NCBI GenBank assembly: GCA_964187785.1
Contig: OZ076409.1
Span: 22,446,001 to 22,510,000, forward strand
DNA from: Amphiscolops sp. MND2022
Lineage: Eukaryota
Length of the DNA: 64,000 nucleotides
Reading direction: 5' to 3'
In this document: piece by piece, positions 6,290-61,700 of the stretch
Position numbering within the stretch: position 1 is the stretch's first letter
Layout: each line of letters starts with the position of its first letter
The notes under the pieces: generated by a model
Databases searched by the model: none
What the model saw: only the letters and a program-made list of their open reading frames with translations
Told to the model about the DNA's origin: nothing
Translations under genes and position numbers: made by a program

Positions 6290-6530
6290 TTGAATACCAA
6301 AAATCGAAAAATACCGGGTCCGTCATACGCTAATGCCTTGTGGAGCGTGTTACATATATGGAGATTTGACGAATTTATCAACAAAACTGTGTGCACTTTA
6401 TGCGGTCATGGAATCATCGCTTTTCTGCGTCAAATCTCAAGTACAGCATTGATAACCACCTCAATTCGAAGAAACATCAACGTCTGTTTGAAACGAATGC
6501 CAAAAGGCAAAAACTATTGACCGACACGTC
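6290..6530 (+). pseudogene. Frameshifted zinc-finger fragment (BED/CGGBP1-like, hAT-transposase-related) in esterase intron
   Basis: VCTLCG in one frame continues as SASNLKYSIDNHLNSKKHQRL in another, giving a CxxC...HxxxxxH pattern. Confidence 0.5.
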
Positions 6531-6544
6531 GCCTACCCAGGTAG

Positions 6545-6760
6545 ACCATCATGGCTTATTCATGGCTTCTTTCCATGATGATGGTTTTTTCATAGCATTA
6601 CATTAGGATCACGACTAGTCATCCACAGTGACTCTTATTACATTCGAATCATGGCTAATCGTCCATGGCAATTTTCGCATTACATTTGAATCATGGCTAA
6701 TCATACAAAGTGATTTTCATCACATTCGAATCATGGCTAATCATCTATGAGCATGGCTCT
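6545..6760. repeat. Short tandem array, ~41-bp unit (acattcgaatcatggctaatc...)
   Basis: The gaatcatggctaatc core occurs at ~6646, 6688 and 6728, with degenerate flanking copies. Confidence 0.75.
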
Positions 6761-7779: not shown

Positions 7780-8275
7780 AACTCGCCGAACTATGTCTGA
7801 CGCTTTCGGGGAAGTGTTCTTTTTCGGGCCTGTGCGGCGTTTTTTGGAGGAATTAACAACCCAACAAAAAGACTATCCGCTATTTGCGTACGTCTTTGAC
7901 TACACAACAGATACCAGAGGAAAAGATGTTCTATGTTCCTCGTTCTTGCCTGTTGGGATTGGAAACTTCCACGGTTTTGATTTAGCGTTTTTCTTGAACC
8001 AACTCGGACGAAATTCTCCTTATGTCGACAACGTAACCGAGGCCGACATTCGAGTGAACTCAGCAATGGCTGAAATGGTAGAAACCTTCATGACTCAAGA
8101 TGTTGATAGCATCAACCTCGAGAGATACTCTGCGGAGTCACAAAAGGTCAATAAAGTCACCAAAAATGGAATTGCTACTGAATGTTTCGATTTCAAAAAC
8201 TCCGTATACCACCTACCTATGCCTAAGCTTGCCTTTAGTTCTCTATTACTGAAATTGTTTCCCAATAAACTCTGA
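7780..8275 (+). CDS. Carboxylesterase copy 1, last coding exon
   Basis: TTTCAG acceptor, phase-compatible with exon 2. GEVFFFGP, LFAYVFDY, GNFHGFDLAFF (catalytic His). Stop at 8275. An intervening exon cannot be excluded. Confidence 0.85.
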
Positions 8276-32948: not shown

Positions 32949-34736
32949 TGTCGCAAGCATTACGATCATCAGTATGATCATCGAATTGACGACTGTGTGT
33001 TTGCCTACTTCTCACATCATTCCTGGCCTTTTCACTCCGCAGACCTTCGGAATCCACTTCCGGTCTCTCAGACGGAACGTCCCATCCATTTTTGGTCATT
33101 TGTCCTGAACCGGCCCTAATGGCATTTTGAATCTGTGGTAAAACTTGATTGCTAATGACATCATTAATGGCCCTCTGGATTTGAACACTAACCGAGTTCA
33201 TCATCTCGTCCATTTCCCGAGAAATTCAAGAATTCAGTTCACTTGACAGTTTATTAATCTCAGCACTTGAATTCGCTGTTGCTGAATTATGGTCAAAATC
33301 GGCACTGATACCTGAGTTAGTTACTCTCTGGTTCATGTGTACGTTCTCTTCATCATTTTCAAAACCATTACTAGTGACACGTTCAGGCCTTCTAGCTAGA
33401 TTACTACTTAAGCTTTCTTCTCTCCCTCTTGTGTTAAAATGATTTTTACCAAGCATTATATCAAAGTTTTCGATGTCAGAGAGCGAGCATTTCTAAACCT
33501 CTTGATTTCCTGGCTTTCTCTTGCTTTCTAGTAGTAGACATTGAGATTTCAGGTTGAAATATTTTAATTGGTGATCTAGTTCCGCAGTCTAAAAAAGCGT
33601 AACAAATACTGTTGGATTAAAACAATTGTGTCCCTGCCAAGGAAAACACGGGTATATATACTTCCGGGAGGGTGACAATTTTCCACAAACTTGAAATATT
33701 TACTAAACACAACATCAAAGTACTTATCTCCTGACATCAAGTCACACCTTTCCACAAAGGGTAACGTGAGTGTCATATTTAAATAAGCACCCTAATAGAA
33801 GGAAATTCCGGACATTGATATGCACTAAAGAACGCAACGTAAAACAAGCAATCACTTCAGGAATGTGAACATTTTACAAAGCAACTCGAGTACAAATTAC
33901 TGGCATGCGTCGCCACGTGAGAAATATTAACTAAGAGAACACTAATTTTACCTAGTATAACGGCCTAATATGGACATTTGCCCTAATATTGCATCGTAAA
34001 TAATGGTCTAGATTGGTTCAAAGATTAGTAGCTTTGACATATCTGGCACAATATCGTTTAGCATCTTTCAGGGTTATCAGATTATATGGTGCAACTAAAC
34101 TGAGAGCAACTAACAGTGAACAAAAGAAAGCAACGTCATTACATGATTAGACCGGAACAGGCCATTTGACTAATTCTAATTTAACAGCAGTAAAGGCGGG
34201 TGAATGATATGAGCCCAGAAATGGTTATAAAAACAGCTAGGTAGTTTGTACTGAGACAGAATTCATTATTAAAGGCACAAACAATCAAGTATTACTTGAT
34301 TATAAGAGTAGTTACCTTTCTCACTGCACTTTACTTTGAAGGAGGCCGAAACCGGCCTAATGACTGAAATATCAAGTAAGAAGAGTAAAGTTGCGTCATC
34401 CAGCCTTACTCGGCCAGTTTAATAAATATGCACTGAGTACATCTATGGAGTGATTTGATTGGTTGGTTAATGTATTGAGAGCTACATCGCCGAGACAGGA
34501 CGTTTCCGCATTTGAACACGTTTCGTTTCTGCGATTGAATTGCTCTCAATTTATCACAGCATCTTTCCAATTTTCATATTTACACTTACAGCGTTTGAAT
34601 TTAACAACTGCTTGATTTGGATATTTCTAAATCGTAATATTTCAACAGACTAATAAGAATACAAATGTAGCAACGGTGTTTTAACATAATTCAACTGACT
34701 AATTTTACTGTTTTAGTAGTTTTACAAGTTTGTGTT

Positions 34737-35515
34737 TCAATAAATAGGTAAGGTTCCGAGTGTTATATCTTGACCAGCAGTTAAAGTCGTATAATTGGTG
34801 CCATCACAGGCGGCAGCCTGCGAAACTGCGGGTTCTATAAAAAGTAAACTACCTGCATTCATTCCGTTAATATAGGCTTCACGCCTCAGCTTCGTGATGT
34901 AATTTGGCTCGCCGTGCGGTGTTGATCGATCCATGTACCATCTGACATTTTCGTCTTTGCTTTCGTCTATTGCCTTTCCGCACACCATGCAACTGGTACA
35001 TCTCTGCGTGCTTAAATTGTCGTAGGGGCGTGATTTCTGAATGTGAAAAGATGCCCTAAATGTCTTACTGGCTTGTGGAATCAGTGGGGTTTCACTCGAT
35101 GGGCCCCTCTCTTGTGGGGCAGTGACCATGGGGTTTCCGCAACTGGCAAGATGGTTTTGCATAGTTGGAGCCTCTGAAGAGCGTTCTCCTTCTTGGGAGC
35201 GAAACAAAGCTCCTCGTTGGAATGCTCCAGTCCAAGTTTGGGAGTAACGCTCACACCCGGCCCTCTTGTGCTAGGGCCTTGTTCGTCTTCATCTTTCTCA
35301 ACAATCATAATTCTTCCGCCATTTATTATTGGGCTCGCGTGAAAATCTCTTTCGATCCTTTCTATCAAGCGCTCTGTTTCAGTTGAACAGTCAGAGTCCC
35401 ACTCGTCTGATACTTCTCCACTCTCATCACTGGAGATAAATATTACCGACTTGCTGGAAAGATCAGAGTCTAAGTCGTCGTTGAATAATTTTCTGGAGGC
35501 GGTATGTTTCTGCAT
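34737..35515 (-). pseudogene. Accessory ORF of element C (acidic N-terminus, CxxCxxC, SQAAACD motif), one frameshift
   Basis: Overlapping ORFs 35081-35515 and 34737-35207. Homologous to 12633-12900 and 15600-15870 of element A. Confidence 0.6.
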
Positions 35516-37098
35516 GATAAGTTTTTTTTAGCAAATTTTGATTTATCTGATACGACTGAGTTTGTGCGAAAATTTAAGAAAAATAAATTTATTGAATTGT
35601 TGAAAAGAGCCGAGTTGTTCTTTTCCCGGCTATTCGTATTTGGCCGTTGATTTTTCGGTAAACTATCCTAATCCGACAGAAAAATTCCTGAATGGATTTC
35701 TTCGGCGGTAACTGGTCTTTGAATCCTCACTTCCACCCCCATTCTCATCTCCTTAAGTGGAGGAGAGAAGAGTTTTAAGGTTGTTATCATCAAATACCTT
35801 CATCTCAAGTGGGAAATCAACTGTTCGCCTGACGGCCATTAACGGCTCGCGTCGCTAACTTCTCCTAAGATGGCTTCAGTCAATCAAAATCGTTTAACAA
35901 TGAATGAAAAAGTGAATGAATAAAATGACATAAATGGTAACTAAAATGACCCAAAACGACAAAAATTTTAACTAAATGGTAATATTGGTAACGAAACAAA
36001 GCAATAAAAGCAACTAGGCAAATGGCCATTGATGGTTTCTAAATAAGTAAGTTGCAAATGGTGAAGAATGTTCTGTACGATTCGCTGTCAGACTCCGTGT
36101 ACAGTTTTGAATAAGTAAATAGCCACATAATATTAGTCTGGTAATTTCTTCAGCCACGAACTCCAAATTTCAATTTTAACTGTTGTCTTTCCAATTCCTT
36201 TATCATTTGCATTCTTCTTCAGATATATTCTTCTTTGTCTGGATTTATTCAACCCGCTTCTATCTTCCCTTGCCTCCAACTTTGTTGTGAACCTCAAATC
36301 ATTCTGGGTACCCCAGGTCTTCTTCATCCTTAGCCCATTTCGTCCAACATCCCAAGCACTATCAAAATCGATCAGCCTACTGAGGACTGTTTCCCGGAAG
36401 ATTACGTCACTGCAAGAGAATGTCTTTCAACTCAGGATGGTTCAGGTTTCATAATTTGAACTATTTAACTTGATCAGATCTAACTTTTGTTCACAAAGCG
36501 CTTCTTGTTTCCGTTTTTGAACGTGTCTTTCAAATTCAAGAGTCACTTCCGGAAGATTTTTATTGCGGCAAATAGATTCATTTCCAGGAAGCTTACCGCC
36601 AAGTTTAAATTGTTTTCGTTCACAGAACTAAAACCCCGAGACCGACGTAGTAACAAGTTCGCCAGTGACCTCTCCACCTGCTTCCGCAGACACAACCATC
36701 CTTGATCCCCAGACCGTCGCTGACCTTCTTTCTTAACTCTCCCCGAAGTGCTGATAGTGAACAGGACGTCAACGCGTATGCTGATGCGAAAGTCCAGAGT
36801 ATGGAGTCTGTGGGGCTTTCGTCCGATGCAGGGCAAGCTGCACTCGCTGCTGAAACGGAATTAGAAATCCAACCTGAAGAAGTGGCCGGTCAAGGCCTTC
36901 CGCCAGTGACAACGTTGCGGTCGAGTACCCCGATTCCAGTAACAGACGGATGGGCGGCAAGTACCAGCTCGGCTGCCTTAGAATCTGGTTTACGGATTGT
37001 TGACACTTCATCCTCACAATTGCCAGAACTTCTACCGGCGCCATGCCAGAATCCTGAAGGGACATGTGCGACGGTCGTCCAGACTGATGATGACAATG

Positions 37099-38811
37099 TA
37101 TGAAGTCCCTGCTTTGCCAAGTGCTGACCCAAAGGTACGTTTCCTCATTGATCTGAGTGAGAGTGAAAAAACTGCCGAGGAGGCAAGCAACACCGGACAT
37201 CTGCAATTATACGGCAACATTCTCAACATGTCGGAGTCATGAACTGTGGCTGGGGATGAATCAACCTCGCAAGTTGCCGGTCCTTCGCATCAGGGTTACA
37301 TTGCTACCACCTCCAGAGGGATGTAAGACAACCACCCCGAATAATCAGGAAGGGCCAGGGCAATCCTTAAAACTTATTTTGACGAGACCCGAGCTTTTAA
37401 ACTACCCCCAGGCCATTCCACACTGGCTTTTACCGAGCTACATGTATAGCATTTGTTACGAGTCCTCACAGATGAAACGCTCCAAATGTCCTACGATACC
37501 AAGGAGAAAATGATTCTCGATGTAGTGAGAGGTAAGGCTACTACAACTCCATCCACGACAGCGCACTTCTACAAGAGGGCTAGAGCTTCTACCCCCTACA
37601 GGGAGCTCTCTAGTGATTCCAGTGAGGCAGATGGCGGAGGTGACTCGAACGTTGACACACATGGCCCACACTCAACGGATCTAGGTGAAGTATGCGATTC
37701 CTCGTCATTTGGAGCGACAGCGTCGGGGAAATGGCCTTGATTTCTGCCGCCTTAAAGTCGGGACCCAAAGTTGACTCTCTTCAACCAACTAGTCCAAGGA
37801 CCTCTGCCGGACACGTTGAGGAAAAATCCCCAGAGACAGACCATAGCAGTCAGGATATAACCCTCTCTGAAGTAGGGGAACAATCACTGGACTCTGCGTC
37901 TAAGAGGAAAGGCAAGCCCAAGAGACAGCAGCAACGTTGAGTTCCAATGCGCAAGGAGTTCTTTGCGAAGATAGGATGGACAAGGTCCTTCATTTCTGGT
38001 CCTGCAGACCCCGTCCACAATCCGCACATGGTATGGTGACATGAGGGTGAACACAATTTCTCGATCAAAACTAAAGGCTCCTTTGAAATTCTTCGGCATC
38101 ACCGGAGCGAAAAACATCTGAAACGTGACCAGCGATGGAGGTACGAACACCTCAGGAGTGTTGATCGGTCACCGGCAAAATACAGCACCGAGTTAGAGGC
38201 CGTAATGGGAAGGCGCTGACGAAGATATAATTGGCGAAGAAATTACCAAAATTCATCAACGTCGAATTAGTAGATATGGGCGAACGCTTCCCCTTCTACG
38301 ACGACTTCGTCAGAGGCCGTACGACTCCCCTCATCACGCCTGAGTCACGAGCCCGCACCCAGTTATGCATCGTCTCAGATTTCCGTCAAACTCAAGGAGA
38401 TTTGTCCATACTCCGAAACTTATGGGCACGGGTCAGTTCCTTCACCGACCACCAGGCTGCTCTTTGTGATTTCGACTGGGGTGAAAAACGGATATCTGTA
38501 AGTATCTTTTCGATTGAACCTGTTTGTTGCCATCTGATTTCAAGTCATCTGATTGGGTCCTTAGCGTTTTGTTTCCATTCCAGGCCATATTCCAACACCT
38601 TTTCAATTGCGCGATGAGTGACATCGCTGAGCAGGTTACCACAGAGCAGTGCTTTGGTCTTGAGTTTGAGGACAAGGGAGCCAACAGAGTCATGTCCCTG
38701 CGCTTTCGGAAGAATACAGAACTAAGCCGTGTCTTGATTTGCCGCAGTGGGTTGCCCTCTACAGAACTGACCGGAGAGTTGGGATTCCTTGCGCGACTCC
38801 TCTCGGCATTA
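37099..38811 (+). pseudogene. Antisense ORF in element C with a degenerate BED-like zinc finger
   Basis: A chain of + strand ORF pieces. From 37947: MRKEFFAKIGWTRSFISGPADPVHNPHMVW*HEGEHNFSIKTKGSFEILRHHRSEKHLKRD, consistent with an ancestral WCxxC...RHxxSxKH. Confidence 0.55.
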
Positions 38812-38859
38812 CAGTGCCAAAAGTGGGTATTTTGAATTTTTCAGCGGATTTCACTGGAC

Positions 38860-39190
38860 GGCAGTTTTGGAAAGCGTGCAGCGTAATCCACTAACAAATG
38901 CTGTTACGTTGCAGTCGATTCCACTTTTTTGGCGATTTCTCTTTAGTGAAATTCGCTGCGAAGCATTGGATTCCACTTTTAAATACATTAAACATTCGGA
39001 TCTCGCAGTGGATTCCACTAAACACTGTCGTGGATTCCACTGAACGCTGCAGTGGACTCCACCGATGGCCGCAGTGGAATCCACTATTAGCTCCAGTGGA
39101 CTCCACTGCAGTGTTTAAGTGGAATTCACTGAATTATTTCAATACCAACCCACAACAACTAACAACCATCGAATAAAAGTGGAGTTCATG
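38860..39190. repeat. Array of 13-bp palindromes AGTGGAHTCCACT with 22-bp period
   Basis: Copies start at 39007, 39029, 39051, 39073, 39095 and 39118, with degenerate copies at ~38864, 38913, 38966 and 39178. Confidence 0.9.
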
Positions 39191-40029
39191 TACTTCAGTG
39201 CCTGAAAGTTCTTCCTTCACGAGTTCAGTTTTGAGAATGAGAAACAAATTTAGAATCAGCAAGTGTCACAAAAAGAAGGATTCAGAATTTCTCCATTTGG
39301 CAAATTATTCCCAGAGAATTTTTGTCAATCAAGCACCTCTTTACCGCTCTAGTTTGACTGTTATTTTTTCATTCTTTGATTGAATCATAGTGGGCATCAA
39401 ATTTTCACACACAGTTCTTGCTAGTTTCCTAGTTATACACACATACCTTTATGTATAACTAGTTATCAATTTTAATTTACCTCATGGTGGATTCCAAAAT
39501 TTGGTTCCAGAAAACTCACGTCAAGCATTATTCTAGGCGGTTTGCAACGGAGACCTTATCAATTCTACCACCATTCTACAAATTCAAATTTTTTCATCTA
39601 ATAAAATATAAAGTAGCGTCATATCACTGTTAGTCAAAATGGGGCTATTTTTGGTTTTATTACATCAAAAAAGTGGACATTGAATTTCACACACAGCCCT
39701 TGCGTGTATTTTACGTACAACTAGTCTCCATTTTTCAAGTACCTGAAGGCGGATACCAAAATTTCAACTTGAATTAGAAGCTGAATGATGAATGAAAATC
39801 AACCTATTGCTCTCAATCAACTCCTCATCTAAATTCAGGTGAAAAGACGTTACAAGGTTTCACTGAAAACGTTATTCACGGTGTTTTATTTCGGTTCGGT
39901 ACTACGAAAAACAAACATTTGTACTTGTAGCAATCAGTGTTTAAATACAAAATCGCAATTAAAAAAAAACGAAAGGAGTGAAAAAATGAATACACAACAA
40001 CGAAAAGATGAGTGTTTTGTAAACGGAGT

Positions 40030-41998
40030 GTTCTGACGATTCCATCAGTCAAATATCGGTTGAGAAATTTCACGTTCCTGGAAAGTTGATTAGCAATGGG
40101 GCCTTTGTAATCAAAACGGAGCTGCTCAAATGGTAGAATATCACGTGTAGCTCGGAAGACTACAATTATTTTGCCATTTTGAAACAAGTCGATCACTGTG
40201 GGCTTCATGTTGGCGCCGTTTGATTTCAATTGCGAGTGGTTGGCAAGGCGTCCAGGGCGGCGATTATTTGGGTGAAGGAAGCAAATCTCTTTGGAGGCAT
40301 CAATGATTCTTCTAGAGGCGCCACTTTTAACCTCCAGAACGAACTCTTGCTCCATACCTTCTTTCTCGAGGACCTGGCTCAATGACACGTTCAAATACAC
40401 CTCGCAATGGTATTCCATTGAAATGTCGTCCTTTGAAAATTTCTGTGTGGCCATCACACATCTCCGAAATTTCGAACTTTTGGCTAAACAGATTCCAGGC
40501 CACAGCTGCGTCTCTCATCGTTGCGACAACATAAATTGTTCTTCATACGGCAAATTATGGGCAAGTCCAGCATACCGAATTCCTCTGCTCTCAGGTACCT
40601 GCGAGGATTTTCTATTTGACTGGATCTTAGAGAGAATCAATAACTGCGCTGTCACGTCCTGGCTCTTATCCTTCAGCGAAGTCCACTTTTGTCCCTGAAA
40701 AAATGCCGCCACTCTTGACTCAAGACAGTTGTTAGCAACTTTCCCAGAAGCGTGTTCAAAGTATAGCAAGGCCCTGGCTAACTAGCGAGTGTACCTTTGC
40801 TGGTCTCGGCGAGCGCGAACAGCGTTTCTCACCTCGTCTTTGTCGAAACCTTCAATATTCGAAAGAACCAAATCCATTGCATGTTTCAGCTTGGCGATTT
40901 TGAAGCATGGGTCTTTCGAAAGGGGCATCAGTTTCAATGTATTTCGATCTTTTCTTTCTGCTTTTTTGCTTGGAATGAAAAGATCCTAACAGATTTAACG
41001 CAATAGTCGGTTTTACCAATTGAATTCACAAAGAATAACTTTGTATTAATTGGACGTTTGTCGACCTTTTCGTATCGAACAATGGCTAACTTGGTGTGAT
41101 TGGAAACAAAAATGGCCGAATGTGTGTAAAATATACTTTCAATGCTTCAACAGGATTTCCGGATACTTTGTGAACTGTTCGTTCCGCTAATCCAATTGTG
41201 TGTTCCACACAGAGATTGAAGGCGTAGCTCAGTGAATTTTCTTTGTGATCCATCACGATTTGCACAACTGAGTGTACCGAGACATTCCGGATGGAACTTT
41301 CAAGCATATGTGGTACCGCACAATAGAACAAGGTTGTAATTACGCATCGAAAGAGTTCCAACTTAGCTTTTTGTACTAGTCCCACGTTTTCTGCCAATGC
41401 CTGCACATGTTTAGTCAACGTGCTTTCGTACACGTTGTTGTCAAAGTAGGTAGCCTTCGCGCATTCGGATTGGCTGTTACTGAAATTATCCTCACTGCAC
41501 TGGGAGTCAAATGGAAGATTCCCGGGTGGCTCATTGAGCTGGGGTGACACATTGGTCCCGGGCACATTGTTCTGGGGTGGCAAGTTCTGGTGAGGCAGTA
41601 AATTCTGTGACGGGGGTCCTGTTGCAATAGGTTCTCAGGCGGCAAAGGAATCTGAGTCAGATTGTGAGCATTCTGCAGTAAATTTTCTAGAGCTTCTATG
41701 GGCGTATGTTCAATCAAGTGCTCGATCCCATCGGAGTTCATCATTCTAGTTGCACTGAAGAAACCCTTTCGGGGCCGATGGAATTGGCGAACAAGCTGGA
41801 GGACAAAACATGGCTGCTTTATTGAGGAAATCTGGCGGCACATTCCAGTCGGTAGATCGTCGATGTGAGTATTGCACATGTGTAGAAGTCTGGGATGGAC
41901 ACAAGAGTGTTGATTCGAGATTTTAAATTTTGTCAGGCATGCTGGTTTTATTCATGAACCTAGGAGCACAAATGTTGACAGCGGATTTCGCTGAATGA
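40030..41998 (-). pseudogene. Long decayed ORF ending in a SETD8/PR-Set7-like SET domain (left copy)
   Basis: QLWPGICL...RCVMATQKFSKDDISMEYH, IIDAS, PGRLANHS, VVFRATRDILPFEQLRFDY are the SET signature motifs. Upstream frames are linked by stops and frameshifts. Confidence 0.85.
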
Positions 41999-42429
41999 AT
42001 CAAAATTATGATGTAAAAAGAAATGACAATTTTGTTAATAATTTTTTTTGATAAAGCGTCATTTTACTTTTTAGCAGGGATTCGATTTCACCTATTGCAC
42101 TTCACGGTGACTAATACAAGAACTTCAACCAGTGAGCGTTATCAGGTTTATTACGGTGGTTGAGTCCTTTCGGGACTCAAATGCATTTTCAATTATATTA
42201 CCACTCACGAGATGAGTTTAAAAACTAATTGCTAGTATGAATTTTCATTGATTGACCGCTCGAAATGGAATGACACCTTCTTTTAGGACCATCATTGTGA
42301 AATTAGCCTTGTTTTCGCCTAGTTTATGTGTTGACACCTGGTAATCACTTCCTACAAATTTGAATAATTTCTGCTCAGAAGAAGCTCACGTGTTTCTTCC
42401 CGTTGAAGTCAACTTTAAACTCCACTACA

Positions 42430-43190
42430 ATGCTTCTGCAAACTTTAAATGTATATGAAATTGTCCAAATCCTCGACCCTGAAAGCTATATTTGGGCGTC
42501 TGCGAAGATAATAGCGTTCATAAGTGATTGGTCTCTGAAAATCCAATGGATCGACTGGAACAATCGTCTGCAGAATTTCCCCTAGGATTGCTTCCTATCC
42601 CAAACTGGTGGAACATTAGAAAATGCGACATTCGCAACCAGTCATGTCGAAAAAACGTTATAAACCCCTGTCGTAGAACTCAAACCGACTGCAAAAAAAA
42701 AACGAAACCTGTGATATTCAGGCTACCCGATTGTGCCTGTGTGGGGCATTGTTTTATTGATTCCCATGGATAAATCAAAACAGGAACTATTTCGACGAAT
42801 GACCCATTTACCCATGAGTGTGTCGTGGAGATGGACGAAATGTTTAGATTTATCCCCTATTGCTATTGGAAGAACTCAGTGGAATACACCCATGTTCACG
42901 ATGAGAAAGCAGAAGACGACGAGGAAGCTGAAGAGACGAGGCAGGAATATCGGGAAGAACCAAAACAGAAAAGACCTAAAACACAAATACCTGAAATAGA
43001 CTTTTCAACATTGATCCCGCAAACCGATGTTGATGTCAAACTAAGCTATGTACCATGTGTCAATGGAATTTGTCAAAGAGGATCCATTATTACTTTGTCT
43101 GGAATGAAATTCAAAGTGAAAGGTTTGTACTACAGTGCAAAGATGTTGAAAGTTGAAACCTTTCGCAATAATGGCATCCATGGACGATGA
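42430..43190 (+). pseudogene. Divergent ORF with Tudor/Agenet-like N-terminal pattern (frameshifted)
   Basis: LNVYEIVQILDPESYIWASAKIIAFISDWSLKIQWIDWNN resembles the royal-family pattern (VE.lD...W..AkI......V.f..W). Continues through 42528-42773 and 42825-43190. Confidence 0.45.
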
Positions 43191-43333
43191 AGACTGGGAA
43201 CTTAGATGCCAGTAAACATTAGTTCGTTAAAGATCTCGGACTTTTTAAAAAACGTGGAAATCAACTTTTCACTCTTGATAATGATGTTGATAGAACGTTT
43301 GCAGTCTTTTCTGCAATTAAGAGATGTGTTGGT

Positions 43334-43744
43334 TTGTCGTTCAAGAAATCCTCAACTGTGACAAACATTATCCCTGCAACAGAGCTCACAAAACGTGTCT
43401 GTGGGTTCAAGTCGAACTCAAGCAGAGAAAACGTAAAATTTTCAATAGAAGTTGAAACGAGAAACTTGCGAAGCTACTACAGCTTAAATTTAATATTGGG
43501 CCAGAACTGGGACATCATTCCATATACGCTTGAAAATGAGCCTGCCACATTTATCAAGACTTTGAACTTCACGGAACATCGCGACTTTATGATGTTCTCA
43601 ATCAGGTGCCGCATAACTACAACTGAAGGCCACTACAAAAAAATCGAAATCATCGACAAAACTTTAGGCAAAACATTCAACATGCGCACACTGAATACTT
43701 TGTTGACCAATAGGGGTAGAATTTTTGGTATCCACGGTGAGTAA
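43334..43744 (+). CDS. Uncharacterised 136-aa ORF in the spacer of the inverted repeat
   Basis: Open frame with globular-like composition. No recognisable motif. Confidence 0.3.
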   Translation: MSFKKSSTVTNIIPATELTKRVCGFKSNSSRENVKFSIEVETRNLRSYYSLNLILGQNWDIIPYTLENEPATFIKTLNFTEHRDFMMFSIRCRITTTEGHYKKIEIIDKTLGKTFNMRTLNTLLTNRGRIFGIHGE

Positions 43745-44986
43745 ATGTGCGATTACATCTTCAAAAAACGTCTGTTTTGTTACCCCAATTAAATTGAATG
43801 GTATTTTATTTTTGTTGGTAATGCACTGATAAAGTTCTTTTTTCTTAACTCGATTGTTACAGTAATATTGTCCTTGTTACAAAAAATGATGTCAAAATAC
43901 TTTTTTCACTTGTTACTACTTTCTTGAAAAATTCTCTCCAGTAGATAATTTCAATTAGTTCAAACTGTTCCACATACGTATTAAAGAGTTGCTACTTTGG
44001 TTTTTGCATTTTGCAAAATTTCGGTACAAACGTTCTACTAAACCTAAATGCATCTAGCCATAAACAGTAAATGGATTTGACCAACATATGCAAATACAAT
44101 GACAGTGGATTCCACAAACAAATGCTTAAACACTTGTAAACCAATTAAAAAGGGGTACATTCAGTGAATCATTAGTTCTAAATTGACTTACGTTTCTATT
44201 GCAGTGGATTCCACTATTCTGGAAAGTATTCTTCATCCACGGGAATCAATAAAACAATGCCCCACACACTCACAATCAGGTAGCCAGAATGTCACAGGCT
44301 CGTTTTTTTGCAGTCAGTTTGGATTCTACGAAAGGGGTTTGTAAAGTTTTTTCGACATGACTGATTGCGAATATCGCGCTTTTCTAATGTTCCACCTGTT
44401 TGTGTCAGGACGCAATCCTAGGGGAATTTCAAGTTTCTGCAGACGATTGTTTCCGTCGATCCATTGGATTTTCAGAGACCAATCACTTATGAACGCTATT
44501 ATCTTCGCAGACGCACGAATATAGGTTTCAGGGTCGATGATTTGGACAATTTCATATAAATTAGGTGGAGTTTAAAATTGACTTCAACGGGAAGAAACAC
44601 GTGAGCTTCCCCTGAGCAGAAACGATTCAAATTTGTGGAAAGTGGTTACCAAGTGTCAACACATAAACTAGGCGAAAAAGAGGCTAATTTCACAAGGATG
44701 GTCTCAAAAGAAGGTGTCATTCCATTTCGAGCGGTCAATCAATGAAAATTCATACTAGCAATTAGTTTTTAAACTCATCTCGTCAGTGTTAACATATTTG
44801 AAAAGGCAATTGAGTCCCGAAAGGACTCAACCACCGTAATAAACCTGATAATACTTACTTGTTGAAGTTTTTAATTTAGTCACCAAGAAGTGCCATAGGT
44901 GAAATCGAATATCTGCTAATTAGTAAAACGACGGTTTATCAAAAAAAATTAATAACAAAAATGTCATTTCTGTTTACATCATAATT

Positions 44987-46920
44987 TTGATTCATTCAGC
45001 AAAATCCGCTGTCAACATTTGTGCTCCGAGGTTCATGAATAATTCCAGCATGCCTGACAAAATTTCAAATCTCGAATCAACACTCTTGTGTCCATCCCAG
45101 ACTTGTGTCCATCCCACACCTGTGCAATACTCACATCGACGATCTACCAACTGGAATGTGCCGCCAGATTTCCTCAATAATGCAGCCATGTTTTGTCCGC
45201 CAGCTTGTTCGTCAATTCCATCGTTCCCCGAGGAGGGTTTCTTCAGTGCAACTAGAATGATGAACTCCGATGGGATCGAGCACTTGATTGAACATACGCC
45301 CACAGAACCTCTACAAAATTTACTGCAGAATGCTCGAACTCTGACTCAGATGCCTTTGCCGCCTGAGAACCTATTGCAACAGGACCCCCCGTCACAGAAT
45401 ATACTGCCTCACCAGAACTTGCCACCCCAGAGCAATGTGCCCGGGACCAATGTGTCACCCCAGCTCCATGAGCCACCCGGGAATCTTCCATTTGACTCCC
45501 AGTGCAGTGAGGATAATTTCAGTAACAGCCAATCCCAAGGCGCGAAGGTTACCTACTTCGACAACAACGTGTACGAAAGCACGTTGACTAAACATGTGCA
45601 GGCATTGGCAGAAAACGTGGGACTAGTACAAAAAGCTAAGTTGGAACTCTTTCGATGCGTAATTACAACCTTGTTCAATTGTGCGGTACCACATATGCTT
45701 GAAAGTTCCATCCGGAATGTCTCGGTACACTCAGTTGTGCAAATCGTGATGGATCACAAAGAAAATTCACTGAGCGACGCCTTCAATCTCTGTGTGGAAC
45801 ACACAATTTGATCAGCGGAACGAACAGTTCACAAAGTATCCGGAAGTCCTGTTGAAGCATTGAAAGTATATTTTACACACATTTGGCCATTTTTTGTTAC
45901 CAGTCACACCAAGTTAGCCATTGTTTGATACGAAAAGGTCGACAAACGTCCAATTAATACAGAGTTATTCTTTGTGAATTCAATTGGTAATACCGACTTC
46001 CGCGTTAAATCTGTTGTGGATCTTTTCATTCCAAGCAAAAAAGCAGAAAGAAAAGATCGAAATACATTGAAACTGATGCCCCTTTCGAAAGACCCATGCT
46101 TCAAAATCGCCAAGCTGAAACATGCAATGGATTTGGTTCTTTCGAATATTGAAGGTTTCGACAAAGACGAGGTGAGAAACGCTGTTCGCGCTCGCCGAGA
46201 CCAGCAAAGGTACACTCGCTAGTTAGCCAGGGCCTTGCTATACTTTGAACACGTTTCTGGGAAAGTTGCTAACAACTGTCTTGAGTCAAGAGTGGCGGCA
46301 TTTTTTCAGGGACAAAAGTGGACTTCGCTGGAGGATAAGAACCAGGACGTGAGAAAAGTGACAGCGCAGTTATTGATTCTCTCTAACATCCAGTCAATTT
46401 GAAAATCCTCGCAGGTACCTGAGAGCAGTGGAAATCGGTACGCTGGACTTGCCCATAAATTGCGGTACGAAGAATAAATTATGTTGTCGCAACGATGTGA
46501 GACGCAGCTGTGTCCTGGAATCTGTTTAGCCAAAATGTCGAAAATTGGGAGATTTTCAAAGGACGACATTGTAATAGATTAACATTGCGAGGTGTACTTG
46601 AACGTGTCCTTGAGCCAGGTCCTCGAGAAAGAAGGTGTGGACCAAGAGTTCATTCTGGAGGTTAAAAGTGGCGCCTCTAGAAGAATCATTGATGCCTCCA
46701 AATAGATTTGACCCCTTCACCCAAATATTCGCTGCCCTGGACGCCTTGCCAACCACTCGCAGTTGAAATCAAACGGCGCCAACATGAATCCCACATGATC
46801 GAGTTGTTTCAAAATGGCTAAAAGATTGTAGTGTTCCGAGCTGCACGCGATATTCTACCATTTGAGCAGCTCCATTTTGATTGCAAAGACATCATTGTCA
46901 ATCAACTTTTCCAGGAACGT
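44987..46920 (+). pseudogene. Second (inverted) copy of the SET-domain ORF
   Basis: 274-aa open N-terminal part, then stops. PGRLANHSQLKSNGANM at ~46737-46790. Confidence 0.85.
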
Positions 46921-48237
46921 GAAGTTTCTCAACCGATATTTGACTGATGGAATCGTCAGAAAACTCCGTTTACAAAACACTCATCTTTTCGTTGTTGTGT
47001 ATTCATTTTTTCACTACATTCATTTTATTTTCAGTTGCGATTGTGTTATTAAACACTGATTGCTACAAGTACAAATGCTCTCTTTCGTAATACCGTACCG
47101 AAACAAAACACCGTGAATACCATTTTCAGTGAACCCTTGCAACGTCTTCTTCACCTGAATTTAGATGAGGGGTTGATTGAGAGCAATAGGTTGATTTTCA
47201 TTCATCATTCGGCTTGTAATTCAATTTGAAATTTTGGTATCCGTCTTGAGGTACTTGAAAAATGGAGACTAGTTGTACGTAAAATACACGAAAGAGCAAG
47301 TTGCTGCTCTGTACGTAAAACGCTCGAGCCTGAAAACAATCTAAAATTACTGAGACCGAAAAACATCCCAGTAAAACAGCTGTGGTTCCTGTTTTTCGCG
47401 ATAATAGGTTAACTAATTCATAACTCGCTTCATTTGGGGTATACTATTTCTTGGAAGTCTTGGGTTTCAGCTGTTTGAAGTCTACATTTACACACTAAGA
47501 TCTTGTTCCATGATCCATTGTTGAAAGATCAAAAAAAAGTCATCAATCAAAGTCAGAATTCGTTGATCATAATAGCTACTGATAATGATGTTCAATTGTT
47601 AGAGTTTTTACTGAGCTCGAACTTAATCCCTACAAACGATTCAATGCCGGTCCTCACTGAAGCTTCAGTTATGTTATTCGCTAGGCTATCCTTGCTAGAA
47701 GTGTCACTTTATATCGTCTCGGGTCAATAAGATTAGAATGTAAATGAAGGTCAGTGTAAAAGTCAATGTTTGAACTTCTCTCGTTTTTAAGGGGTTTGAC
47801 GCTGGAACACCGAAGACAGGAAGACGTAGGTTTAAGCAATCAAGACCCTTGTGTCCATGTTATCACAAATTAACTACGTTAGCTAATAATACAAAATGCA
47901 ACCGCAGTCGAGATGTTTTATTTAATAACTTTGTGAACTTACTAAATTTCAACAACTTCTGAAAGTGAACAACTCCGGTCGGCTGTTCACAGATAATATC
48001 ATAATATTTGTTGGTAACAACCAGGAAAAAAAGGAGAGAGAGAGAGAGAAGAATAATCAGTTTCAAATAAGGTTAGTTTTCACGGAGTTTAGACATGAAA
48101 TTGTAAAAACTAATGAATGATTTGATGAATTTTTGAATCGGAAAAATAATTTGAGCAGCTGTAAGCAGAAGCTGGATGCTTCAAATATTCAAAACATTGT
48201 AAAAATTATTTTATTGCAAACTAGTTGATAGTCGGTT

Positions 48238-51894: not shown

Positions 51895-53200
51895 TTAGTT
51901 GACCCCAAGGACCCCAGAATGACCCCAAAAATAACTTAAAAATGACCCCAAAAAAATTGCATTTTTTTACGTTTTAATGCAATTTTTGTCGAGTTTCCGA
52001 TAAATGTCGTGGATTAGAATGTTGAAAAGATTCACAAAGACAAAAACTCGTTGTCCAGTAGTCGTTTATGAAGAGATAAATGCGGTTTTTTGGAAAGAAA
52101 AAGACCCAAAAATGACAAAGAAAACCAAAAATTTCCAGATTTTTAACGTTTTTAAGCAGTTTTTGTCAAATTTTCGATAGAATTCGTGGACTAGAATGTT
52201 GAAAACGATCAACATGGTACAAGGTTTGTTGTCCAGTAGGCGTTTCCGAAAAGATAATGGCTGTTTTTTCACTGAAAAAAGTCTCAAATTGACACCGAAA
52301 ATGACAAAAGTCCCTAAATTTTCCATTTTTCAAAGTTTCTACGCATTTCTCGTCAAATTTTGGAGACTTCGTGGATTGGAATGTTTTAAGGGGTCAACAA
52401 GGAAAACGTTGGTTGTCCAGTGACCATTTTAAAGAGTTTATTGCATTTTTCCAAACGAAAATGTCTCAAATTGACACCGAAATTGACAAAAAACACAAAA
52501 TTTTCCAACTTTCAAAGTAAAATTTTATGCCTTTTCTGTTAAAGTTTCACAGACTTCGTGGATTGGAATGTTTTGAAGGGTCAACAATGAAAAAATTGGT
52601 ACCTCCCGTAGTCTTTAATGAAGAAAATTGCAATATTCTGATTGAACAGGTCTCAAATTGACACCGAAATTGACAAAAAACACAAAATTTTCCAACTTTC
52701 AAAGTAAAGTTTTATGCATTTTTTGTTAAGGTTTCACCGACTTCGTGGATTGGAATGTTTTGAAGGGTCAACAATAAAAAAAATTGGTACGTCCCGTAGT
52801 CTTTAATGAAGTCATAATTGCAATATTTTGATTGAAAATGTCTCAAATTGACACCGAAAATGACAAAAATCCCAAAAATTTCCAATTTTCAAAGATTTCA
52901 TGCATTTTTTCCAAATTTTTACAGACTTCGCCAATTGGAACAATGAAAAGGGTCAACAAGGAAAAAAAGTGTTGTCTTGTATGCTTAGAAAAGAGATAAA
53001 TACAGTTTTTCAATAGGAAATTGTCCGGAATCGAGATCGAAAAAGACAAAATTTCGAAAAATTATCAAAGTCCTTTTTTCCACTTTTTGTCAAAATATCG
53101 ATAGACTTCGTGGACTACAGTGTTTAAACGCTTAAGGCGTGGGCAAACTTGTTGTTTCGGTGAGCCTTGGACAACTGAATATTTTGGAAAAACTGAAAAT
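51895..53200. repeat. Tandem array with ~180-190-bp unit
   Basis: tctcaaattgacaccgaaa at ~52282, 52464, 52650 and 52841. gacttcgtggattggaatgtttt recurs at the same period. Confidence 0.85.
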
Positions 53201-55238: not shown

Positions 55239-56125
55239 CCCAGGTTTTCAATCTTTGCGAATCTGTAAATCTGCAGGATTTTTTCTGCAGGGTTCTGCAA
55301 AGATCGTTGCACTGAATCTTGAAGATCCATACAGATCTGCAAGATCTTTACAGAAGTGTGCAGATCTGCAAGATCTTTACAGAAGTGGGCAGATTTTCTT
55401 TGAAGATTTTTGCAGAAATGTTCTTCTGCAGCTTCTAAGGAACCAATGACTGCATTTTTGGACTTCTTTAACTACTTTATCAACTACTTTAGCTGACCCA
55501 GGCTCAGTCAGTTGATACTCTCGATCACTCAAAATTCTCGAGAAGAAAAATTTGTCCCCATCACGGTAGTTATGGTGACTGGAGAATGAGAGTATTGGTT
55601 ATACGCCGTAATTTATCCATTTCACTTGAACTTTCCAGATGTGGTTGTTGAACTTTGAGAAGCTCGTTTGCCTCATTGACTTCGTTTTGACGGATGAAAT
55701 TTGACATGTGGCAACCTTCTGGGTTGGTAGATGTGTTGATAAAGTGTTGTTGTTGTAATATTTCGGGAACATGGTTTGTTGGAGTAATTTTAATAATTTC
55801 TGGTAACTCGGAATACGTTATAGTAATTTACTGGTCATTGTTTGGACCTGTAAAGATCTGCAAAACTATACAGATCTGTACAGATTGCTGCAGAAAAATG
55901 TTTCATCATTTTGACATAAATGAGACTTCTCTCGAGTTTTAAACATTTTTATTATTCGTTTGACATTGCTGTTTAGTTTTTACTGTGTTTCTGATAAGGT
56001 CATTTTTCTTCGAATCTGCACATATCTGTAAAGATCTGCAAAAATCCTGCAGATCTGCACATAACTGCAAAGATCTGCAAAAATCCTGCAGATCTGCACA
56101 GATTCGCAAAGATCGAAAACCTGGG
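55239..56125. mobile_element. Non-autonomous TIR element (MITE), CACTA/EnSpm-like ends
   Basis: TIRs cccaggttttcaatctttgcgaatctgt / acagattcgcaaagatcgaaaacctggg. 2-bp TSD aa. Subterminal (tgc)agatctgca repeats. Confidence 0.85.
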
Positions 56126-56784
56126 AACATAGAAACTAAGAACTTTTTGTCGGAGTTTTTCAAGTCTTACCTCTTGATCATCCTTGATTGAACGTTTTTG
56201 GTTCTCTATTCCAAGCGGTTACTCCGCACGATCCAGGCGTTTTTTTTGCCCCAAAGCGTCCAGCAAAGGTCTGACTACTTAGCTTTTATGCTGAAACTTT
56301 TTTCCAAAAACATTTATAAAAATTTTTCTATTATACTGCAATTTTAAATGACCACTTCAGCCTTTCCTGTTGTATATTGTAGAAAATCAACAATCCGGGC
56401 AAACTACAAAGTTTTCAATTCCCAGCAAATTTGCTATTACATGAACCAATCAGCCGGAATTTTTTTCTGGATTATTTAGAAACTTTTACTTTCCTTAGCA
56501 AGGTTCAAATAATTAAGCCTTTCTGTCCCAGAATACGGAAACCTTTTTGAAAACCTGAACTTTAGTGGGATTCGAACTTATGAGTTTCTGCTTTGGAAGC
56601 CGCATTGATGCAACTACCAATTCAACTGAATGGCCACAGGCAAAGATTTCAAGACATGTTCGGTAAACCAATAAGTTGGTTGTTCTCACATCAGCGTTTG
56701 GTCTGTAGCTTTGTCAGTTTAATATTCTTTCAGTCATAGAATCAAAGGTCCATTTTACACTGAATTTAACAGGAACTGTCAGTC

Positions 56785-57388
56785 ATGGAAGAAACTCAAA
56801 AAGAGAACAATTTCGATCTTAATTCCAGTTTGGGCACAATAAGGGGGTATGTTGTGGAAACTCCTAACGGCTCCAAAGTTGCCAAGTTTCTTGGGATCCC
56901 CTACGCTCAACAACCGGTGGACAAACTCCGTTTCAAACCTCTGCAGCCCTTGATTCTTCCCCTTGGAACTCTCGAAACACCTTTCCAGGCTCTCAATGTT
57001 GGGAAATCCAGCATGCAAACTGTCGACAATCCCTTTGCAACCACGTTACCCACGGGTGAAGATTGTATTCATCTCAATATCTTCGCCCCACTTGAAAACA
57101 TCGCGACTCCTGACAAGGTCGTCTTTTTCCACATACATGGAGGTGGATTTTTCCAAGGTAGCGGTAATGAGCCGATTTATGACATGGTCAGTTTTGTGGA
57201 ACGTCATAATTGTGTAGCCGTGAGCATCAATTACAGGCTAGGGATACTTGGTTTTCTGAGCATGCCACCACTGATTGAGGAAAATTTGGGGCTCAAAGAC
57301 CAGCAAGTGGCTCTGCAATGGGTTCACGAGCATATAAGGAGCTTTGGCGGTGATCCCAACAAAATTACTCTGTATGGTAATTCAGCAG
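56785..57388 (+). CDS. Carboxylesterase copy 2, coding exon 1
   Basis: Same 604-nt length as copy 1, ~90% aa identity by hand count, GNSAG elbow, GT donor at 57389. Confidence 0.95.
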
Positions 57389-57829
57389 GTTAGGTTTTGC
57401 ACTGCTATCTGATGAATCATGCAAAATAGGGTAATAAATCATGCAGATAAGTTTACGAAGTTTCGAGAAACATCTAAATTCCATCCACTACGTTTTTCAT
57501 AGCCCAACTGCGTTAATGTTTCAAATTGTATGTATATTTCTCGTTGTTAGCTGGATGTTTTCTTGCTTATTCGTCTTCACAACAGCAGAAAAAGAGTTTT
57601 CATCTTCAGTTTCAGTTTTTGTTGGCCCAAAGAATTAGAAATTGCAACCATGTAACGTAGAAAGTTCTCATATTGATCCTGTAATACACTTCTGATTTAT
57701 AAAACTCGTATCTAAAGGCATCAAAAAGCAACAGGATTTTTCACTAAGCTTTGATTTTGCTGACCTAGGCTGCATGGTTCTTGTACAACTCTTGTACCTG
57801 GAATTCTTTCTATATTTTTGAAACTTTAG

Positions 57830-58244
57830 GCAGCGCTAGTTGTCATTACCATTGCTTGAACAAAAACAGTATTTGTTTATTTGATCGAGCCATTTTGTCA
57901 AGCGGAGCAATCAATCCGAAATGGGGATACGCGACTGAAAAAGACCAAAAAAGGAGAATCGCCTTTATCCTTAAACGGCTTGGCTGCCCAGAGACTAACA
58001 ACCAAGATGACATTTTCAACTTCCTTTTGACTTTGGATTCGTCAAAGTTCGAAAATTTGGGTTTGCGTATGGAACAGACCATGAAGGTGATACCATTACC
58101 AGTGACGTCATTCATGGAAACCCCCAACTCGTTGGTACCCTTGAAGAAGAAACCGATTCTGATTGGCTTAACGAGAGAGGAAGGACTTTTATTCCTTCAG
58201 TTTTTTCATCCGTCTAAATCAAATGAAAGCACAGCGCTAACCAA
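57830..58244 (+). CDS. Carboxylesterase copy 2, coding exon 2
   Basis: Same 415-nt length and splice sites as 4664-5078; IGLTREEG. The last exon is expected just past the window end because 63290-64000 aligns with intron 6990-7590. Confidence 0.9.
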
Positions 58245-58769
58245 GTTAGTACATTTTAACCCTATATAGACCAGGAAAGTTTCGAAGCCATCCGAAAATC
58301 TGGTTCTTTAACTCTAAACTGCAAAATCTCCAGAACTATTCGAGTCCGATAAACGATTTATTTTCGTTTGTGGCTTAGGCACACTGGCTCCGGACTTTAC
58401 GCCAAAAATCTGCACGCCGCGTGTCTGTGGTTGCAATTCACAGCATGCTAGGTTTCACAACATGCTAGGGCACACACAAGCAAAAGACTTATGAAACAAA
58501 AAGAGCATTTATGTGCGTCATGTAAAAACACATTCATGCACACTTTTCGTTGCAAATGACGCAATTTTGCATGAGTGACGGGTGTCTTCACAGGTTGACC
58601 GACATATTTAGGAATGATGAACCATACTCTGTCATGATAAAACATGATGATGTCTATGATCATAGTATGATTGAACATGCTCGAAATTTTCCTGAAATTC
58701 GATTACCACCTAGCGGTTAGTATTGGAAATCTGCGCGCATACTTGAATCATTCAATCAATGTTCTTTTA

Positions 58770-61700
58770 TATTAATGGTTCTGAATGGAATTTCATTTGA
58801 AATTGATGAGTCATTGGTTCAAATAATTGAGTTTAAATAATAGTTCAAAATTGTTAAAGATCATGCATGTATCTTGAATGACTATTTTCCTCCCGCATTT
58901 AGTAAATACTTTCACAGGTGTTTTTAATTTTCCCGCATCCTGTGTGTTTTAATTGTTAAACACAAGCTCTTTGAAAATATTAAATTATCCTTTTCTAAAA
59001 CTTTTTTTGGCCGATGCAGCGGCTTTGTCCGCTGTTAAAAGATAGTGGCTATCGGTGAGACATATTTGGGTCCGCCATGGAACCGTACCTTCGAGCTTTG
59101 GAATTTCGAAAAAAAGAAATCTTGGAACTTTGTACCACAAGTTGTCCTTACAAAAGTAACACTTCGGTTGTCAAGTACCTAATTATCAAGTAACTAACCT
59201 GCAAACCCGTCAACCTGTTAGTCTCAGCTTCATCCAGGATTGATCGTCATTCTCCGGTTAGCTCTTTCCATTTTACAACTTGAAGGCATTTTGTTCCTTT
59301 GTCGAACAAAAATTGGATTCCCTGATAGTTTCTGATCGACCTTCAGCTTACCCCTAGCAAAACATACATAACTTCACTCATGATAAATGTTGTCGGTTCA
59401 CTGGAACGAGCTTTACAAAACATGCATTTTGATGACCGAAAGCCGCTTCAAACCTATATCACAGCCATTCCGTCCTTGAGTTTGAACCCCTATGCTCAGA
59501 GTGATACGATCAAATTGTCGTTTCTACTGGATCATCGTAGCCTTAAAAAGACGATACAATTAGGTATTTGGCATGATATTCTGAACAAGTCCTTGACTCC
59601 CCATAAATCGAATACCAATCCAGCTCTTACCCCAAAAGAATGAGCAACTGAATTGCTGAGACATAAATCACGTATATCAGCCTTGGTCTATTGTGAACGT
59701 ATTGATGCATTTGATGATCTTCGTGATCAAGATTTCACTTTCATTCGAGTCACAGAAAATCGTTCTCGTAAAAGTCAGAATGATATTCCTCTTTTGAAAA
59801 TTCCCGAATTCATCAAGTAGCAAGTATTGAATTCAAGTCTTTGTTCGTTGTTTTGGTACATCGTAGTGCTTCCACACAGCCAGCCGCTGATGATAGGAAA
59901 CTTACCCGCATCAGAATTCGTCACTGGGGTGCTCTTACTAGGTTGGAACAGAAAGTTGATGAATTTACGGTCACTGTTGTTGACTCTTCATCTAAATTGT
60001 TTCAAGGTGAAGCTTTGCTCAAGACATTACAAGATACAACTTCAATGATTCGTGAACTCGATGTGGAAATTGAATTATTGTAGAAGATGTAGATGATTTA
60101 ACCGATGAACGGTAACACCAAACGGAGTTCGATGTTTCTGCTAGTGTTACCATCGCTAAGTTGTCTGCATTGATTGACAACTGGAAAAAGAACTTGATAG
60201 ACTTCCGCATGAACTTTCAATAAACCCTTCTTCATCGAGTTCTGCTAAATTGAGTAGAATGAAGCTCCCTAAACTTCAAATACCAACTTCGCTGGGTCAT
60301 ACACTAACTGGATGTGTTTTGGACCAGTTCAAGGCCTCCTTCGATTCTAATTCCCAAATCTCCAGTTCAGAAGGCTAAACTGTTTGAAAGCATGTGTTAA
60401 GGGTGATTGCTTGGTTCAATATCAATAATTGACGCAAACCACAACTTTGTTTTGACAATATTGAAAGATCGATATGAAAAAAGGATCACCATTCAAACTC
60501 ATTTGCAAGCAATTTGGTCGCAGCCAGGTTCAAAAACCGAATCCACTCTTGGATTGAGAAAACGTTTGGAACTTACCGAAGAGCATTTACGAACACTTGT
60601 TGAACTGGTCAACCAGTAGAGCATTGGAAAGCTATCTTAGTTTTTGTGCTCACAAACTGGACCCAGAGTCACGCAAGCAGTGGCAGCTGGATTATGCCGG
60701 CAAAGATGTTTTGTCGTGGGAATTATTGTCAAAATTCCTTGACACAAGAAGCCGCGCACTCAAATTGAGTGGCACACAGGTCATATCGCAAACAAGTGTG
60801 ACACCTCCCTGCAACCAAGGGAACCAAAATCTAAGCAGAAGTGTTCAGAATATTTCTGTTCAAGGCTCATCGTGTGAACCTTGCCAGGAGGACCATCGCC
60901 TTCACGCTTTTTCACAGTTAAAAGCAGTTTGTCTTGCTGAAAGACATAAATTGGTTAAAGGAAAAAAACTCTATTTTGACTGCTTCCAATCAGGACAATC
61001 GTCTAGTTCGTGTCCATCTACGTTCACTTGCCGAGAGTGCAAATGAAACGCCACACCCTGCATCATCTACCTCAGAACGAGCTCCCTGATCGACACACCA
61101 TTAACAAGACCTATTCAAGTAAGAATTCAACTTCCATCGAAATGGAATCTACAAAGCAATTCACCAACGGCCACTTTAGTGCTGACAATGAAAAGAAAAC
61201 TTTTTTTCTTTTTCTACATCTCTTGTAACGATTCGAAATTCATCGGGAGACGCAATCAAGCTACGCGCTCTCTAAGATTTTTATCCACAAGGAAGTTTCA
61301 TAACCGAAGATGTTGCAAAGACTCTCATGCTGCCAACTCAGCGCAGCCAAATAGATGTTTCAACCATGGTTTCTTCCCACTTTCAAAAGACTCGAGGTTT
61401 ATTGCCAGTGAAGTTGAATGACACTATCGTAGTTATTGTCCATTTCATACCAAAAGTCTCAAACGTCGTTCCTGATAAAATATCGACGATTCAACTATGC
61501 GCCAAGTTAACAACCTTAACTTAGGTGACCCTACTTTCTACGTTCCTAATGGAAAGTTGATCTTTTGCTTGGTGCAGATGCTTGAAAACAAAATAAAGGA
61601 TAACGGCTTGTGCATTCGGAATCCCATGTTCGGTTGGGTTTTGTCTGGTCCTGTGTTCTCGTCTGGATGTAACAATGTTGTGTCCCACATGACTACAACT

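Follow-up and report, generated by a model that had tools for sequence, protein, structure and literature searches.

A 64,000-nucleotide stretch of the genome of Amphiscolops sp. MND2022 (contig OZ076409.1, positions 22,446,001 to 22,510,000; hereafter the window) contains the left part of a large DNA transposon, whose complete copies combine a transposase of predicted RAG1/Transib fold with three putative chromatin genes. The sequence-only reading of this DNA had proposed a mobile unit at 38812..44226, in which a gene for a SETD8-like lysine methyltransferase (SET) lies next to an open reading frame (ORF2) for a Tudor-like reader. This unit is real, but it makes up only about a third of the element: window positions 38807-44238 correspond to 5.4 kb at the left of a transposon 16-17 kb in length and are followed by an inverted duplication, while this copy lacks about 11 kb that hold the transposase, a JmjC gene and the right terminal inverted repeat (TIR). 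The idea of a writer/reader module is supported in so far as a SETD8-like SET is present and Tudor-like barrels are predicted with low confidence, but it was incomplete, as full copies add a JmjC demethylase-like gene and thereby join a writer, an eraser and a reader. The element is real and probably an undescribed kind of DNA transposon variant, with an unusually complete chromatin kit.

A search of the source genome (1.07 Gb) with window positions 39100-44230, in which 27 of 214 candidates were scored, gave near-full-length matches of 88-90% identity on at least 10 large contigs. The first 30 bases of the left end occur in this genome 103 times without mismatch and the reversed control 0 times, which bears out the earlier idea of a mobile family; rather than a low copy number without common termini, about 100 left ends were registered. 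Full copies also have target-site duplications (TSDs). Twenty copies of the family represented in the window (family A) were extended by 10 kb, and the right end was reached in 15 of them. These are 16.0-16.9 kb long and bounded by CATTAC...GTAATG inverted repeats, the right one ending in ...CAGTAATG. An exact 2-bp TSD was found in all 15 and a 3- or 4-bp match in none; as three copies occupy one site, they correspond to 13 independent sites, with a chance of TSD match of about 0.07 each. The duplicated dinucleotides (TT, AT, GT, TA, CT, TC, AA, TG, CG and GG) reveal no sequence preference. Together with the sister families described below, matching TSDs flank 26 of 29 scorable copies from seven families (A 15/15, B 4/4, C 2/2, D 2/3, E 1/1, W 1/2, V 1/2), while B4, C1, C4, E1 and E3, in which an end was absent, gapped or mutated, were left unscored. 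TIRs were found in seven families out of eight; the ends of family Y were not found. Other family-A copies are 95-99.6% identical to the reference copy, and the window copy is 87-93% identical. Because of these ends, the TSDs and the fold of the transposase, cut-and-paste transposition of the element is hardly open to doubt. A tyrosine-recombinase element and a Tc1 element with TA duplication, both suspected at first, were ruled out by the ends and the variable TSDs. Of the two possibilities offered earlier, a transposon or a virus-like element, the first is thus retained and the second found no support: the TIRs and TSDs are of cut-and-paste type and transposase relatives in viral contigs numbered 0. 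Full copies of A, D, E, W and V revealed no ORF for a capsid or polymerase.

That no transposase is visible, as had been stated, is a consequence of truncation in the window, but full copies do encode a transposase with the catalytic triad D-D-E and a predicted RAG1/Transib fold. The longest frame in family A has 881 amino acids, and relatives indicate a protein of about 1,050-1,150. Sequence searches against Pfam and the PDB assigned the element's transposase to no transposase family, and no Pfam transposase family was found in 27 relatives at an expect value (E) of 0.1, so that the protein was placed only by fold and Atlas searches. The AlphaFold model has a mean predicted local distance difference test (pLDDT) of 76.5. 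Foldseek gave a best E of 5e-7, and the 39 best matches listed before Hermes were all RAG1, RAG1L or Transib. Alignment by VIA-align was best with the RAG1 core (Z 15.0, root-mean-square deviation (rmsd) 7.7, 467 aligned residues) and BbRAG1L (Z 13.8, rmsd 4.3, 416 aligned), followed by HzTransib (Z 9.8) and the P element (Z 9.1). In the Atlas search unnamed clusters appeared at 0.95 and RAG1-family clusters at 0.91-0.94. Catalytic residues D346, D426 and E724 are invariant in every relative covering them (18, 20 and 23 of 23, respectively), and DxxH is conserved after the second catalytic D. The tail of the protein is BRCT-like: 5 of 27 relatives gave BRCT matches, the best of them at E 1e-4, and BRCT domains of TOPBP1 and BARD1 aligned at Z 5.1-5.3. 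A profile search collected 573 representatives at E up to 0.001; the names of 10 that were looked up gave no information. The zinc-binding motifs C(2)C and H(3-4)H were found in 0 of 23 relatives at the expected positions, as mapped to RAG1 by spacing. A looser motif window returned C(2)C in 1/23 and H(3-4)H in 4/23, from other positions.

The CMCT clade, as it is delimited in Kojima 2025 (PMC12730594), includes EnSpm/CACTA, Mirage, Chapaev, Transib, Plavaka, ESTA, Lanisha and, in addition, RAG1, and is characterized there by 5'-CA..TG-3' termini, TSDs of 2-5 bp and the motifs C(2)C and H(3-4)H. The name Lanisha also occurs in PMC8245031. CATTAC...GTAATG ends, the 2-bp TSD, the D-D-E triad, the predicted fold, DxxH and subterminal repeats all bring the element close to this clade, whereas the lack of both zinc motifs (0/23 relatives have them at the expected positions), the BRCT-like C-terminus and the lack of a transposase match in Pfam or PDB sequence searches set it apart. 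Since its termini and TSDs agree with those of the clade and its zinc motifs do not, the element is filed here as RAG1/Transib-like and not under any named superfamily; because of the absence of these motifs the transposase may belong to an undescribed lineage. RAG1, BbRAG1L and HzTransib are its best structural matches. Transib, however, produces 5-bp TSDs and has CAC ends, whereas 2-bp TSDs of variable sequence accompany all 15 family-A copies, the ends read CATTAC, no RAG2-like gene was seen, the zinc-site motifs are lost and the elements reach 16-47 kb with a chromatin cargo. Family-A TSDs vary and so differ from the TA-specific ones of ESTA. As regards EnSpm/CACTA, no Transposase_21-type or other Pfam transposase family matched in 27 relatives at E 0.1, and no EnSpm structure appeared in the fold lists. 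Enlarged EnSpm elements of 16-20 kb with 4-5 ORFs are described for a red alga in PMC6431247.

The SET gene occupies window positions 40083..41955 on the minus strand, where it is broken by stops and frameshifts; intact copies encode 644 amino acids and make up 5 of the 20 family-A copies; a naturally intact SET is located at L004:3769-5700. SET motifs noticed earlier on this strand lie within 39879-40514 and were confirmed by Pfam (SET, E 1.5e-7, over the cut-off). The likeness to SETD8 also held: a profile built from 10 element SET pieces matched SETD8 first (E 1e-15), then the bacterial SET 4ldg (5e-13) and MLL (5e-9). SETD8/PR-Set7 is thus the best PDB match, and its motifs GRLxNH and FDY occur together in 6 of 8 families, but the element protein differs from it in a CxxHP insert, a unique N-terminal domain and the residue at the product switch. 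In SETD8 a Tyr in this position restricts the enzyme to one methyl group. The FDY motif, with Phe at the switch, was found in 8/8 families, so that the designation of the protein as an H4K20 monomethyltransferase did not stand as such; because Phe replaces Tyr, di- or trimethylation is predicted. The gene was described as intronless, which is true of family A, but not of sister families C, D and E. Both SET and ORF2 lack introns in family A (L004 and other copies) and have them in C, D and E (L069, L071, L077, L146-L150), a difference showing that introns were either lost or gained as this lineage of DNA transposons diversified.

The JmjC gene was assembled from GT-AG exons read from the sequence, its splicing being presumed accordingly. 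Its product carries C2H2-like zinc fingers (E 1e-3, under the cut-off) and a JmjC domain, the exon of which matches best KDM2A (E 3.5e-10) and PHF8 (2.6e-9). The iron-binding triad HxD...H is intact, with HxD in 8/8 families and the distal His in 8/8. Similarity to the KDM2/KDM7 (PHF8) group in the PDB and in this triad is combined with a different architecture, as the element JmjC is fused to C2H2 fingers rather than to CxxC or PHD.

ORF2, divergently oriented to the SET gene as the sequence-only reading had it, starts at 42430 and extends on the plus strand to 43710. It is broken in the window and includes what had been taken for a third ORF (43223-43744), in fact its frameshifted C-terminal part. 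Intact copies (7 of 20 in family A) encode 427-437 amino acids. The structural model displays three beta modules followed by a C-terminal domain. For residues 4-71 and 82-153 the matches are Tudor/Agenet domains of 53BP1, PHF19, MTF2 and TDRD3 (Z 6-7.2, with an rmsd of 1.3-2.4 over 50-56 residues), for residues 190-276 they are BAH domains of EBS, Rsc2 and AIPP3 (Z 6.7-7.4), and three Trp residues are retained in 6/6 families with aligned N-terminus. Atlas leads ranged from 0.83 to 0.88, under 0.9. On the basis of this model ORF2 is predicted, with low confidence, to be a tandem Tudor plus BAH-like reader, and the Tudor-like N-terminus suggested before receives tentative support from the predicted structure.

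All four genes, for the transposase, SET, zinc finger-JmjC protein and ORF2, were found in families A, B, C, D, E, W, V and Y, though in shuffled order. Elements of B are about 16-20 kb long, of C about 18 kb, of D 47 kb, of E 18.5 kb, of W 19.9 kb and of V 28 kb, and the sister-family transposases are 27-52% identical to that of family A. One copy of B is a 6.3-kb deletion derivative with only SET and ORF2 between both TIRs. The 47-kb element of family D (L092-L089, L103-L106) has moved together with several nested Gypsy-like fragments, and three copies are about 99.5% identical. Because copies of V and W are 99.9% identical over 20-28 kb and family D has many unbroken transposase frames of 1,175 amino acids, the sequences point to recent activity of these families.

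Cargo of this kind might consist of host fragments captured passively and without benefit, as in Pack-MULE elements, or the window might merely hold a host pseudogene duplication. Most copies are indeed broken (SET is intact in 5/20), family D also carries its Gypsy-like pieces, and within-family ratios of nonsynonymous to synonymous substitution rates (dN/dS) fall between 0.3 and 1.5, although frameshifts distort them and we did not use them as support. Comparison of families B and C, however, gave dN/dS of 0.07-0.08 for SET, 0.08-0.09 for JmjC, 0.14-0.15 for ORF2 and 0.12-0.23 for the transposase, with raw pN/pS of 0.24-0.28 for the cargo. By these values the cargo is under purifying selection between the two families as strong as that on the transposase. 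Moreover, the same three genes are kept in eight families with strongly diverged transposases and different gene orders. In a tree that was built without L227 (an ORF2 relative) and without the SET of the Z element, element SETs form one clade (support 100/99) against six host SETs, the host SETD8 being absent from these and from all 30 SET loci retrieved. The SET and transposase trees share groups (V,Y), (B,C) and (A,D,B,C), while E and W are not resolved; by inspection of groups the two trees agree where resolved. Eight metagenome loci from outside this genome were also considered. An ORF2 relative adjoins the transposase in 2 of the 8 contigs, and neither SET nor JmjC was found on these loci, which at 1.4-6.7 kb are too short to exclude either. 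One of them, L232, contains between transposase and ORF2 a RING-finger ORF (Pfam, over the cut-off) and an HMG-box-like stretch seen by eye (4036-4512, 2954-3631), so that the cargo may vary. Selection, the content of many families and the trees largely refute passive capture already, leaving it very improbable, and since the cargo is retained and selected, it benefits the element with high probability.

What this benefit could be is less certain. We give an even chance to the possibility that the three cargo genes write, erase and read histone methyl-lysine in order to keep the chromatin of the element permissive for expression and transposition. In such a system the transposase would cut at the CATTAC ends, zinc fingers of the JmjC protein would bind the palindromic repeats of the element and so recruit its demethylase domain to them, ORF2 would anchor the enzymes on nucleosomes that carry the marks, and the SET protein with Phe at its product switch would add two or three methyl groups, probably on H4K20. 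Less probable is the more complete proposal of an undescribed lineage with RAG1/Transib fold and a BRCT tail, devoid of CMCT zinc motifs, that would have carried the whole writer-eraser-reader circuit since before a deep split and would direct it by zinc fingers to its own repeats in order to escape silencing.

Several observations weigh against this anti-silencing scheme. An unbroken transposase is present in 0 of 20 family-A copies, and a matching TSD is missing in 3 of 29. The palindrome was counted in family A only, and its binding by zinc fingers is predicted. ORF2 has no Pfam match (13 rows searched), no PDB profile match and no Tudor match by sequence; its model is weak (mean pLDDT 54, predicted template modelling score (pTM) 0.30), and as its best Z of 7.4 stays below the tool's decisive threshold of 8, the reader role is only a prediction. 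In families V and Y the NH of the SET motif is replaced by NY, a change in the cofactor motif that may impair these enzymes. Synonymous divergence between B and C is near saturation, making the dN/dS ratios rough, and the JmjC tree is mostly without resolution. Finally, the family-A JmjC protein ends in an ELM2 motif (23.9 bits at a Pfam cut-off of 21.7). In host proteins ELM2 recruits deacetylases, and by analogy this end would repress chromatin rather than open it.

The last feature belongs to a different explanation, according to which the kit would serve as a switch for self-limitation or timing: writer, eraser and ELM2 would keep the element repressed in the majority of cells, or would have non-histone lysines as their targets, for instance those of the transposase. 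Joint travel of writer and eraser conforms with it, as does H4K20me3 on repeats, young DNA transposons included, reported in PMC9406493. However, apart from family A, ELM2 was noticed only in W, by eye, and tblastn detected none in B-E, and several families have amplified very recently, as the nearly identical V and W copies testify. We regard such self-restraint as rather improbable. It is also conceivable, if unlikely, that the cargo steers repair of DNA breaks or target choice: SET, a 53BP1-like tandem Tudor and the BRCT tail would then mimic the H4K20-methyl repair axis and seal donor sites or place insertions. SETD8 is linked through H4K20me2 to 53BP1. The BRCT matches on the transposase tail, 53BP1 among the top matches of ORF2 and SETD8 as the closest SET all fit this explanation, but 53BP1 has nearly the same score as barrels of SETDB1, Agenet, PHF19 and Spt5 KOW, the zinc finger/JmjC/ELM2 protein is not readily explained, and the variable TSD dinucleotides betray no preference in target sequence.

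Transposon genes for chromatin or epigenetic regulators have precedents. The HarbingerS and MuDR elements of Phytophthora to which PMC12730594 refers are likewise DNA transposons with a SET methyltransferase gene, but they have transposases of unrelated superfamilies, and JmjC, Tudor or BAH partners are unmentioned for them in the accessible part of that article. The same source treats Vandal with its VANC anti-silencing protein and fungal transposons with TET/JBP as carriers of epigenetic regulators that act on DNA methylation. The present element resembles them in encoding its own regulator and in having repeats that could provide sequence-specific targeting; for its kit, however, which would unite writer, eraser and reader, the predicted target is histone lysine methylation. 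No published element with SET, JmjC and Tudor together, nor an account of the present one, was found in the literature, the search being of articles, outside Repbase, Dfam and supplements, where it may be catalogued. Anti-silencing by transposons has been known so far from a few plant and fungal cases concerning DNA methylation, and SET-bearing transposons from Repbase listings. A lineage in which selection maintains a histone methyltransferase, a demethylase and a reader of several domains in eight families would offer a self-contained system for studying the ways in which a transposon combats or exploits the chromatin of its host. Its transposase adds a branch near RAG1/Transib with lost zinc motifs and 2-bp duplications, a finding of interest for how RAG arose and how it works, and near-identical young copies are ready for a direct test. 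The Pfam SET search and the JmjC exon search of the source genome yielded more than 1,000 candidates each, and such elements may therefore inflate counts of chromatin genes in annotations.

Another multicopy element of this genome (L195:6935-9238, L196:438-1601, L196:5089-5997) has a SUV4-20-like SET upstream of tyrosine-recombinase-like motifs, both recognized by eye and the latter without Pfam match, and a nearby intronless JmjC gene of HQDF type, as in the RAG-like families. Judged by sequence, it suggests a second class of transposons carrying SET and JmjC.

In the window the element begins at 38807, the sharp left end shared by genomic copies, and not at 38812 as first delimited. Its left TIR (38807..38828, plus strand) starts with CATTACAGTG and is preceded by the presumed left copy of the 2-bp TSD (GG, 38805..38806); the flank repeat matches up to 38804, and the right TSD copy was lost with the right end. 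The palindrome GTGGA-H-TYCAC forms a left subterminal cluster of 6 copies with a 22-bp period (39008..39130). Clusters of one palindromic motif had been assumed to flank the unit, and all 8 window matches do lie at 39008-39119 and 44105-44204, but the right cluster belongs to an internal 183-bp repeat, in the first unit of which (44073..44238) the window copy breaks off, and not to a right end. A full family-A copy has 22 such motifs in 4 clusters. Beyond the break, 44236..47293 is a fold-back inverted duplication (minus strand) of 39696-42774, with 91% identity between the arms. It contains a second decayed SET gene (45035-46944, plus strand) and the 5' part of ORF2, in agreement with the second, decayed copy reported before; the genes of both copies are broken. 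Insertion into a retroelement was traced on one side: a dispersed repeat of the left flank runs up to the junction and its best copy leads into a gag-like ORF (DUF1759, E 4e-5, under the cut-off), but its continuation is not within the window. In this flank repeat (33500-38806) gag-like Gypsy sequence adjoins an ORF that gave a weak signal for a zinc finger and, by eye, shows hAT-like wording.

Elsewhere in the window, 10600-33200 is occupied by decayed fragments of Gypsy-like long terminal repeat retrotransposons with local 2.9-kb duplications and 60558-62534 by a BEL/Pao-like fragment, both assigned by eye. A 29-31 bp satellite (2109-2920), a 187-bp tandem array (51933-53128) and an element resembling miniature inverted-repeat transposable elements, with 28-bp inverted ends and internal repeats (55239-56125), were also registered. 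Two related carboxylesterase-like host genes (3544-8275 and 56702-58269; GGGF and GxSAG motifs by eye) are situated 53 kb apart and are 84-92% identical over 300-bp blocks.

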